Source of the DNA: Escherichia coli O157:H7
GTDB lineage: Bacteria; Pseudomonadota; Gammaproteobacteria; Enterobacterales; Enterobacteriaceae
Assembly (NCBI RefSeq): GCF_013167455.1
Contig: NZ_CP038328.1
DNA length: 64,000 nt
Strand: one strand, 5' to 3'
Part shown: piece after piece, positions 43,519 to 49,347 of the stretch
Numbering within the stretch: position 1 is the first letter of the stretch
How the letters are laid out: the number at the start of each line of letters is the position of its first letter
Notes under the pieces: model-generated
The model's input: only the letters and a program-made list of their open reading frames with translations
The model's database searches: none
Told to the model about the DNA's origin: nothing
Made by a program: the position numbers and the translations under genes

Positions 43519-44994
43519 ATGTCCAGTCAATATTTACGTATTTTTCAACAGCCGCGTTCAGCCATATTGCTGATCCTGGGTTTTGCTTCCGGGCTACCGC
43601 TCGCCCTGACATCCGGCACCTTACAGGCCTGGATGACGGTCGAGAATATCGATCTCAAAACCATTGGTTTCTTCTCTCTGGTAGGCCAGGCTTACGTTTT
43701 TAAATTCCTCTGGTCACCGCTGATGGACCGCTACACGCCCCCATTTTTTGGGCGGCGGCGCGGTTGGCTGCTCGCCACGCAAATCCTGTTATTAGTCGCC
43801 ATTGCGGCGATGGGTTTTCTCGAACCAGGCACCCAACTCCGCTGGATGGCGGCGCTGGCGGTGGTGATCGCTTTTTGCTCTGCCTCCCAGGATATTGTCT
43901 TCGATGCGTGGAAAACCGATGTGCTCCCGGCAGAAGAACGTGGTGCGGGCGCGGCAATCAGCGTTCTGGGTTACCGTTTAGGGATGCTGGTTTCCGGCGG
44001 CCTAGCCCTGTGGCTGGCAGATAAATGGCTGGGCTGGCAGGGCATGTACTGGTTGATGGCGGCGCTGTTGATCCCCTGTATTATCGCGACGTTGCTTGCA
44101 CCAGAACCAACCGACACCATTCCTGTGCCCAAAACGCTGGAACAAGCGGTTGTTGCACCTCTGCGAGATTTCTTTGGTCGCAATAATGCCTGGCTTATTT
44201 TGCTTCTTATCGTGCTGTATAAGCTGGGCGACGCATTCGCCATGAGCCTGACAACCACGTTTTTGATTCGCGGCGTCGGGTTTGATGCGGGTGAAGTAGG
44301 CGTGGTAAACAAAACGCTTGGCTTACTAGCGACCATTGTTGGCGCATTGTACGGTGGGATTTTGATGCAGCGCCTGTCACTGTTCCGGGCACTGCTGATT
44401 TTCGGCATTTTACAAGGTGCGTCTAACGCTGGTTACTGGCTGCTGTCGATTACTGATAAGCATCTCTACAGCATGGGCGCAGCCGTCTTTTTCGAAAACC
44501 TCTGTGGCGGGATGGGCACATCAGCCTTTGTCGCGCTGTTAATGACGCTATGTAATAAGTCATTTTCCGCTACTCAATTTGCCCTGCTCTCAGCGCTTTC
44601 TGCTGTAGGGCGAGTTTATGTCGGCCCCGTGGCGGGTTGGTTTGTTGAAGCACACGGCTGGTCGACATTCTATCTATTCTCCGTCGCCGCTGCCGTACCA
44701 GGGCTTATTTTGCTGCTGGTTTGCCGCCAGACGCTTGAATATACACGAGTAAATGACAACTTTATCTCCCGTACCGCATATCCGGCAGGTTATGCCTTTG
44801 CCATGTGGACACTGGCGGCGGGCGTCAGCCTGTTGGCCGTGTGGTTACTGCTATTGACGATGGACGCGCTGGATTTGACGCACTTCTCTTTCCTGCCTGC
44901 TCTGCTGGAAGTCGGGGTTTTAGTCGCCCTTTCTGGCGTCGTGCTTGGTGGTTTGCTGGATTATCTGGCGCTACGAAAAACGCATCTGACGTAA
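43519..44994 (+). CDS. ampG: muropeptide (anhydromuropeptide) permease AmpG, 491 aa
   Basis: MSSQYLRIFQQPRSAILLILGFASGLPLALTSGTLQAWMTVENIDLKTIGFFSLVGQAYVFKFLWSPLMDRY..; MFS-like multi-TM. Confidence 0.95.
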   Translation: MSSQYLRIFQQPRSAILLILGFASGLPLALTSGTLQAWMTVENIDLKTIGFFSLVGQAYVFKFLWSPLMDRYTPPFFGRRRGWLLATQILLLVAIAAMGFLEPGTQLRWMAALAVVIAFCSASQDIVFDAWKTDVLPAEERGAGAAISVLGYRLGMLVSGGLALWLADKWLGWQGMYWLMAALLIPCIIATLLAPEPTDTIPVPKTLEQAVVAPLRDFFGRNNAWLILLLIVLYKLGDAFAMSLTTTFLIRGVGFDAGEVGVVNKTLGLLATIVGALYGGILMQRLSLFRALLIFGILQGASNAGYWLLSITDKHLYSMGAAVFFENLCGGMGTSAFVALLMTLCNKSFSATQFALLSALSAVGRVYVGPVAGWFVEAHGWSTFYLFSVAAAVPGLILLLVCRQTLEYTRVNDNFISRTAYPAGYAFAMWTLAAGVSLLAVWLLLLTMDALDLTHFSFLPALLEVGVLVALSGVVLGGLLDYLALRKTHLT

Positions 44995-45453
44995 TCTGTA
45001 AATATTATTTAGCTGTAGTAATCACTCGCCGTAATTATTACGGCTAAATAAACATCAGCATCGCTTATTAATATTTGTTCTTTTGTGCGGCTTAGCGTTT
45101 GGAAATTATTGGCGCCATTTATAAATTCTATTTTTCTTACACGATTCAGCTAATGAGTCTTTATTTTCTCACCACCAAGTTGTCACTCCAATGATAATTA
45201 TTTGTTAAATAATTGTTTTATTTCGCATTGATTATACCAATTGCCCGTCCAGACTTCTTCTGCACTCCCCTTTTGTTATAACGCCCTTTTGCAACAGCTT
45301 CTTAAAATCAACCTGATATGTTTTGCAACATATGTGACCTGACAGCCAAATCCAAGTAACAGGAATTTAATCATGTTTACAGTAATGTAACCTTCCCGTA
45401 AAATGCCCACACATTTTAAACGCCACCAGATCCCGTGGAATTGAGGTCGTTAA

Positions 45454-46401
<948 letters not shown>

Positions 46402-46410
46402 AGGGGTTGA

Positions 46411-49347
<2,937 letters not shown>

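Follow-up and report, generated by a model that had tools for sequence, protein, structure and literature searches.

The DNA in front of cyoA in Escherichia coli O157:H7 raises a simple question. It is long, rich in A and T and carries no annotated feature, and it could be read either as a promoter region alone or as the place of a further, hidden gene or transcript. The stretch of DNA analysed here, referred to as the window, comprises 64,000 nucleotides of contig NZ_CP038328.1 (RefSeq assembly GCF_013167455.1). According to both the open reading frames and the RefSeq annotation, ampG occupies 43519-44994 on the plus strand and cyoA starts at 45454. Because ampG ends at 44994 and cyoA begins at 45454, the gap is exactly 44995-45453, or 459 bp.

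This gap is the already well-studied control region of cyoABCDE, and the element is therefore a known one. It can be said with high confidence that it consists of two parts: the 3' end of ampG (~60 bp) and a cyo control region (~380 bp) controlled by ArcA, PdhR and Cra. Table 1 collects the features of both parts.

Table 1. Features of the ampG-cyoA gap in window coordinates, with distances from the cyoABCDE transcription start site (TSS) where given.
Feature	Position	Strand	Description
Whole ampG-cyoA intergenic region	44995..45453	.	459 bp, GC 35.5%
ampG 3'UTR stem-loop	45005..45051	+	18-bp stem plus 2 apical pairs; starts 10 nt past the ampG stop
Block A	45074..45089	.	ATTTGTTnTTTTGTGCG, about -337..-322; 80-100% column identity, 27 species
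Block B	45097..45110	.	TGGAAATTATTG, about -314..-301; conserved in alignments
Cra (FruR) box	45135..45150	-	GCTGAATCGTGTAAGA on the minus strand, -276..-261
Distal ArcA site	45180..45222	+	Four repeats in direct orientation, spaced by 11 bp, -231..-189
PdhR box	45226..45242	.	CATTGATTATACCAATT, -185..-169
Conserved palindrome	45274..45283	.	(C/T)GTTATAACG, -137..-128
Conserved GCAACATATGTGAC and weak CRP-like site TGTGACCTGACAGCCA	45325..45348	.	45325-45339 and 45333-45348 (centre -70.5), respectively
Core promoter	45373..45404	+	-35 TTTACA 45376-45381, 17-bp spacer, -10 TAAAAT 45399-45404
cyoABCDE TSS (A)	45411	+	Kim 2012 TSS table; Park 2013 site offsets agree
43-nt 5'UTR	45411..45453	+	Near-invariant; stem CCAC 45423-45426/GUGG 45435-45438; Shine-Dalgarno GAGG 45443-45446

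An earlier reading of this DNA, made from the sequence only, had described an AT-rich stretch of about 460 bp without an open reading frame before cyoA. This description holds at 459 bp and 35.5% GC, and no conserved open reading frame is found. By comparison, the window as a whole has a GC content of 51.2%, and the remaining annotated gaps of 100 bp or more within the surrounding 50 kb have 43.4%. Within the same 50 kb the gap ranks second in length among 42 (the median gap is 126 bp) and is the most AT-rich of the long gaps. RefSeq annotates cyoA and then cyoB-E downstream of it, and places no feature inside the gap in either the O157:H7 or the K-12 record.

The region is nearly universal in the species. 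Between 44900 and 45550 the window shows 100% identity to E. coli O157:H7 PV15-279, and 5424 of 5426 complete E. coli genomes contain this stretch with at least 95% identity. In K-12 the gap is likewise 459 bp long and differs from the window by 11 substitutions and no indel. From this ungapped alignment, a K-12 coordinate (NC_000913.3) equals 497064 minus the window position. A genome scan with CyoA returned 80 species, in most of which ampG lies directly upstream, with a spacer of roughly 390-760 bp. Elsewhere in the window, the RefSeq annotation of the matching O157:H7 record places espY3, a type III secretion effector gene, at 60009-61580 between pgpA and yajO.

The first ~60 bp of the gap belong to ampG, whose 3' hairpin they contain; assigning the whole stretch to cyo regulation, as was done from the sequence, was too generous by that much. 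The hairpin folds at -20.5 kcal/mol (z = -7.7) on the plus strand and at -18.0 kcal/mol (z = -4.95) on the minus strand. Among 22 Enterobacteriaceae, 13 of the 18 pairs change on both sides and 79% of cells are paired, compared with at most 55% in slid controls, and no shuffle attains the observed covariation. The element acts as RNA in the ampG transcript, since the G.U pairs that are kept would be mismatches on the other strand. An origin in a repeat family can be rejected, as there is one copy per genome.

The hairpin is likely to be a terminator or a 3' stabiliser of the ampG message. It resembles intrinsic terminators and 3'-protective hairpins in being a stable sense-strand stem-loop right after a stop codon and in showing compensatory changes. 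Unlike intrinsic terminators, it has an 18-bp stem that is AT-rich and is followed by AAAUAAACAUC, with no U-tract in E. coli, and it therefore fails the terminator scan, which calls no intrinsic terminator anywhere in the gap. No 3' end is listed at the hairpin in the Term-seq tables of Adams et al. (2021). For these three reasons, termination is put forward only as a likely role.

The same inverted repeat could instead be an element of double-stranded DNA, such as a protein-binding palindrome or a cruciform, that takes part in cyo control. The apical half of the stem (GTAATCAC...TAATTATAACGG) is conserved both in its sequence and in its pairing, the minus strand also folds, and the missing Term-seq end would agree with such a role. 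Against this, G.U pairs are kept in 19 of 22 species, and changes from A-U to G-U are tolerated only in the plus-strand RNA; such pairs are mismatches in DNA or on the minus strand. The outer stem pairs also covary freely, which a sequence-specific operator would forbid, and the element lies 360-400 bp from the TSS. A DNA element is thus a rather unlikely reading, and the RNA hairpin of ampG is preferred.

The second part of the gap is organised around one promoter. TTTACA-17-TAAAAT agrees with the sigma-70 consensus at 10 of 12 positions and is the sole promoter-like site called by the promoter scan, although one hit per scanned 1 kb is not above shuffles (mean 2.2). The core promoter shows 90% mean pairwise identity across 18 genera and is invariant in both the Enterobacteriaceae and the wider Enterobacterales alignments. 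Kim et al. (2012), in the available portion of their TSS table, assign cyoA a single TSS, supported by 245 reads, at 450877(-) in NC_000913.2 and a 5'UTR of 43 nt. This position maps to 45411 in the window, 7 nt past the -10 hexamer and 43 nt before the ATG of cyoA. According to the same portion, cyoA of Klebsiella pneumoniae is transcribed from the same promoter sequence. Park et al. (2013) give offsets for the ArcA sites that lead to the same TSS. These TSS data come from K-12, to which the window is identical from the -35 hexamer to +3.

The sequence-only reading had set its picture of a long regulatory region against a promoter lying only immediately upstream of cyoA. Each side is right in part: there is a single promoter with a single TSS 43 nt from the ATG, but regulator sites lie far upstream. 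The promoter itself is immediately upstream of cyoA, and the length of the gap is due only to operator sites.

Two other motifs have been considered at the promoter. The inverted repeat TTTACAGTAATGTAAC (45376-45391) overlaps the core promoter, as does the proximal ArcA site. This repeat, similar to ATTACA-N4-TGTAAT, presumably resembles an HprR box and is equalled by 7% of randomised regions; it was not retained. A CpxR-like match, GTAAACATGATTAAA (-45..-31), was also rejected: it is reached by chance in 10% of cases, and one of its half-sites is not conserved outside Escherichia.

Evidence for operators can be provided by binding data from K-12 together with motif scans, which were compared here with 500 Markov-randomised copies of the region. 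K-12, the source of all the binding data, differs from the O157:H7 gap at 11 positions. Park et al. (2013) found three ArcA ChIP-seq regions upstream of cyo and, in their supplement, a 64.9-fold derepression of cyo in an arcA mutant. The supplement gives a proximal site of three repeats, ATTTTACGGGAAGGTTACATTACTGTAAACAT, at -38..-7 (45373-45404), which covers both promoter hexamers; in the motif scan it is weaker, with 5 mismatches to the consensus. The distal site of four repeats, TTGTCACTCTAATGATAATTATTTGTTAAATAATTGTTTTATT, at -231..-189, lies under peak cyoA3. It has 1 mismatch to the 18-mer consensus, a score equalled by 0.2% of randomised regions, and is conserved. Its repeats are of the TGTTA type, spaced 11 bp from centre to centre. 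The middle peak, which has no motif, is centred at window position 45288.

In one strain, E. coli EC529 (NZ_AP039439.1), an ISApl1 element of the IS30 family sits in the ampG-cyoA gap at about window position 45204, within the distal ArcA site. It parts the upstream operators (Cra and part of ArcA) from the promoter.

PdhR and Cra boxes are both conserved across genera and above chance. The PdhR box CATTGATTATACCAATT has 2 mismatches in the 14 positions of ATTGGT-N3-ACCAAT, equalled by 0.6% of randomised regions; one of the two is a lineage-specific G>A change. In the genomic SELEX work of Anzai et al. (2020), cyoA is listed with the box AATTGGTataACCAATg, and the K-12 version matches at 13 of 14 positions. 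The candidate Cra box, GCTGAATCGTGTAA, departs from the 14-mer at 1 position (10.8% by chance) and from the 16-mer consensus at 4 (equalled by 1.4% of randomised regions), the consensus forms being GCTGAAACGTTTCAGC and RSTGAAWCSNTHHW. Its portion CGATTCAGC is near-invariant across Enterobacteriaceae, and regulation of cyoABCDE by Cra is stated in PMC5888115.

Other regulators find less support in the consensus scans. For FNR (TTGAT-N4-ATCAA), the best match in the region has 3 mismatches in 10, is equalled by 99% of randomised regions, and no match is conserved. FNR repression of cyo is widely cited, and the effect may be indirect. A full CRP site (TGTGA-N6-TCACA) is approached with 3 mismatches, as in 83% of randomised regions; the TGTGA half of the CRP-like site is nevertheless conserved throughout the order; its centre lies at -70.5, and other genera have it displaced by exactly 11 bp. 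The best match to the 19-bp Fur box GATAATGATAATCATTATC reaches 12 of 19 positions, lies within the distal ArcA site and is equalled by 66% of randomised regions. Overall, scans of the gap with consensus sequences for FNR, CRP (16-mer and 22-mer), Fur, NarL, GadE, NsrR, PhoB-like, IHF and CusR sites gave matches that were absent or at chance level.

The view that this is a complex promoter region with several regulators is borne out by the mapped promoter and by the ArcA, PdhR and Cra sites far upstream. From the list of regulators that had been put forward for it, ArcA and Cra are supported and CRP is represented by a half-site; no FNR site was found.

Further detail can be obtained by comparing species, for which 26 Enterobacteriaceae and 15 more distant Enterobacterales were aligned. 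The alignments show short, strongly conserved blocks between stretches of saturated sequence. These blocks are the ampG-proximal inverted repeat, blocks A and B, the Cra box, the distal ArcA site, the PdhR box, the palindrome, GCAACATATGTGAC, the core promoter, the whole 5'UTR and the first twelve codons of cyoA. Part of block B, GGAAATTATT, is also present in Serratia, and TGTGAC is conserved as far as Serratia and Pectobacterium. The palindrome lies ~10 bp from the centre of the middle ArcA peak. When blocks A and B were compared by eye with sigma-54, sigma-E, marbox, Fis, Lrp and Fur patterns, no convincing fit was found.

An exact direct repeat of 10 nt, TTTTGCAACA, occurs at 45287-45296 and again at 45321-45330, 34 bp apart. 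Outside Escherichia, Citrobacter and Salmonella, the second copy alone is conserved.

The distances between the blocks are also conserved. Block A is followed by block B at 20-21 bp across species, and block B by the Cra box at 42-45 bp. The distance from the distal ArcA site to the PdhR box is 29 bp in 35 of 40 species; that from the PdhR box to the palindrome is 45-46 bp in all 40, and that from the palindrome to TGTGAC 57-58 bp in 39 of 43. For TGTGAC and the -35 hexamer, 42 of 54 species have a distance of 53 bp, Serratia, Pectobacterium and Pantoea among them; in Escherichia, Citrobacter and Salmonella it is 42 bp. The difference is the main indel of the region, an exact deletion of 11 bp: a ACACnnnnnCTG-like segment is missing at window position ~45359 (between GTA and ACAGG) and is present in every other genus examined. 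As 11 bp is one helical turn, alignment on the face of the helix is kept. The spacers themselves are only 38-39% identical, against 54% at four-fold degenerate sites of cyoA, so it is their length and not their sequence that is conserved.

Such rigid spacing suggests that the bound proteins must occupy defined faces of the helix. This would be expected if ArcA oligomers bridge the three regions and an activator docks at TGTGA. A more ambitious reading can be offered tentatively, and is more doubtful than probable: the cyo control region may be a stereospecific nucleoprotein scaffold of ~340 bp, whose distances have been held to ~1 bp or to one exact turn since the Enterobacteriaceae diverged. 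At least three of its conserved elements, namely block A, block B and the CGTTATAACG palindrome, would be bound by factors that have so far not been linked to cyo. Combined with the ampG hairpin and the near-invariant 5'UTR, the scaffold would imply undescribed layers of control over the main aerobic oxidase.

The upstream blocks could also point to a second promoter, used under specific conditions and located near blocks A and B or the Cra box; a portion of the gap would then be a long alternative 5'UTR. These three elements lie 260-340 bp from the TSS, which is unusually far for operators, and a TAGAAT-like hexamer stands between blocks A and B in many species. In E. coli, however, this hexamer is TAGCGT, and neither the promoter scan nor manual inspection of the alignment yielded a pair of hexamers at acceptable spacing. 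The one TSS data set, which covers few growth conditions, gives a single cyoA start in its available portion. A second promoter is accordingly judged unlikely, and the single promoter described above is retained.

An independent gene for a small RNA or a small protein, in addition to the cyo promoter, would be a more far-reaching possibility. The gap is long and has conserved blocks without an assigned factor, and short RNAs are known just outside it, at ampG and 80 nt into cyoA. Within ampG, Adams et al. (2021) report an abundant ORF-internal 3' end at K-12 position 452393 (window 44671), with an RNA of less than 100 nt, 'ampG int', detected by northern blot and found in RIL-seq chimeras with CyaR. 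The sequence of 'ampG int' is present in the window.

Several lines of evidence argue against such a gene. The longest frames from stop to stop are 36 amino acids on the plus strand and 57 on the minus strand, and there are three frames with a start codon (31, 33 and 44 amino acids), all lacking a Shine-Dalgarno sequence. These three were rejected, as stops or frameshifts break them in Citrobacter and Salmonella and the frames are also interrupted by the 11-bp indel; their tblastn similarity in relatives arises because the promoter is conserved at the DNA level. A covariance-model search of 44000-46500 against Rfam at a permissive threshold gave no match at E <= 1. There is no intrinsic terminator and only one promoter-like site. 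In the available portion of the coordinate-sorted table of Kim et al. (2012), the entry after 450877 is the ampG start at 453376, which leaves no other TSS on either strand of the gap, and no 3' end inside the gap appears in the Term-seq tables of Adams et al. (2021). Finally, short blocks of 10-16 bp separated by saturated spacers are the pattern of protein-binding sites, not of RNA or coding sequence. A hidden gene is therefore very improbable. The possibility of unannotated small transcripts, raised from the sequence, finds no support in that portion of the TSS table, in the Term-seq tables, in Rfam or in the conservation of open reading frames.

The gap might also be what remains of foreign or mobile DNA, kept silent by nucleoid proteins and devoid of specific architecture. 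The lowest GC content of the long gaps nearby and the ISApl1 insertion in one strain would fit this reading, but it is extremely improbable and effectively already refuted by synteny and block order: ampG precedes cyoA across Enterobacterales with some 390-760 bp between them, the region is present in all but two E. coli genomes (5424/5426 at >=95% identity), and its conserved blocks are ordered at fixed distances.

Constraint extends beyond the promoter into the start of the message. The stem in the 5'UTR (4-5 bp) becomes ACAA/UUGU or GACAA/UUGUC in Pantoea, Erwinia, Serratia and Pectobacterium, with two pairs switching from CG to AU between clades, and 73.6% of cells are paired compared with 24-50% in slid controls. 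The stem is only suggestive, because this is essentially one switch at the level of clades and RNAalifold finds no consensus structure in the 5'UTR. The Shine-Dalgarno sequence could also pair with codons 3-4 in a hairpin, but neither this hairpin nor a long-range 5' helix is more stable than shuffles.

The first twelve codons of cyoA (45454-45489) show 95% nucleotide identity across 18 genera, against 82% for the rest of the gene, and codons 2 and 4 are the rare arginine codons AGA and AGG. These features suggest a constraint on the mRNA rather than on the protein. Adams et al. (2021) found by Term-seq strong 3' ends 80-82 nt into cyoA (45534-45536, codons 27-28), scored as neither Rho-dependent nor intrinsic. 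They sit just past a predicted hairpin (45500-45529). Taken with the TSS at 45411, they imply a 5' fragment of ~124-126 nt that spans the near-invariant 5'UTR and the first codons.

From these observations a mechanism can be proposed. The ampG hairpin would most likely stop or stabilise the ampG transcript and shield the cyo promoter from read-through. The remaining ~380 bp serve a single sigma-70 promoter, from which cyoABCDE is transcribed starting 43 nt before the ATG. Phosphorylated ArcA binds over the -35 and -10 hexamers and again ~190 bp upstream, with a third bound region between, and so brings about strong anaerobic repression; the binding of ArcA and its 65-fold effect were established in K-12. 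Bridging or looping between the ArcA sites may occur, as their rigid, helically phased spacing suggests. Operators for PdhR, which would convey pyruvate, and for Cra, which would convey carbon flux, lie between and beyond the ArcA sites. The conserved TGTGA half-site at -70.5 is a likely docking point for activation of the CRP type. The near-invariant 5'UTR and first twelve codons suggest an additional control at the level of RNA or translation.

Similar arrangements can be found at other ArcA-repressed promoters. At cydAB, sdhC, nuo and pdhR (Park et al. 2013), as at cyo, an intergenic region contains several ArcA regions built of 11-bp direct repeats, one of them over the core promoter. The cyo sites differ in spanning ~225 bp and in being interleaved with PdhR and Cra operators. 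Their distances are conserved to ~1 bp across genera, a comparison in which spacing was measured at cyo only.

The closest known counterpart is the K-12 promoter cyoAp, as characterised by TSS profiling, ArcA ChIP-seq and PdhR SELEX. It has the same locus, -35 and -10 hexamers, TSS and ArcA sites, and its PdhR and Cra boxes are in the same places. O157:H7 differs from it by G>A in a PdhR half-site, by C>T at +4 and, in the distal ArcA site, by T>C in the first repeat. The first of these changes falls in the left half-site at 45231, where the window has A while K-12 and all 26 other species have G. Of 5426 E. coli genomes, 303 match a 30-mer with the A allele, and most of the matches listed carry the O157:H7 label; two 30-mers with the G allele match 1280 and 1145 genomes. 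At 45414, which is +4 of the cyo mRNA, the window has T where K-12 and the other 26 species have C.

The feature is real but ordinary, and the sequence-only reading was essentially correct. Rigid spacing, unassigned blocks and the ampG hairpin are modest additions to what is known and fall short of a new kind of system. For a genome scan, this is a textbook promoter of the cytochrome bo3 oxidase, controlled by ArcA, PdhR and Cra, and the locus can be closed without concern for a hidden gene. Specialists in respiratory control gain, as by-products, a map of constraint at the level of single bases over 459 bp and four conserved blocks without an assigned factor, and the conserved distances between operators make a model of looping or phasing directly testable. 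For the organism itself, the change in the PdhR operator could alter the response of the oxidase to pyruvate in the O157:H7 pathogen.
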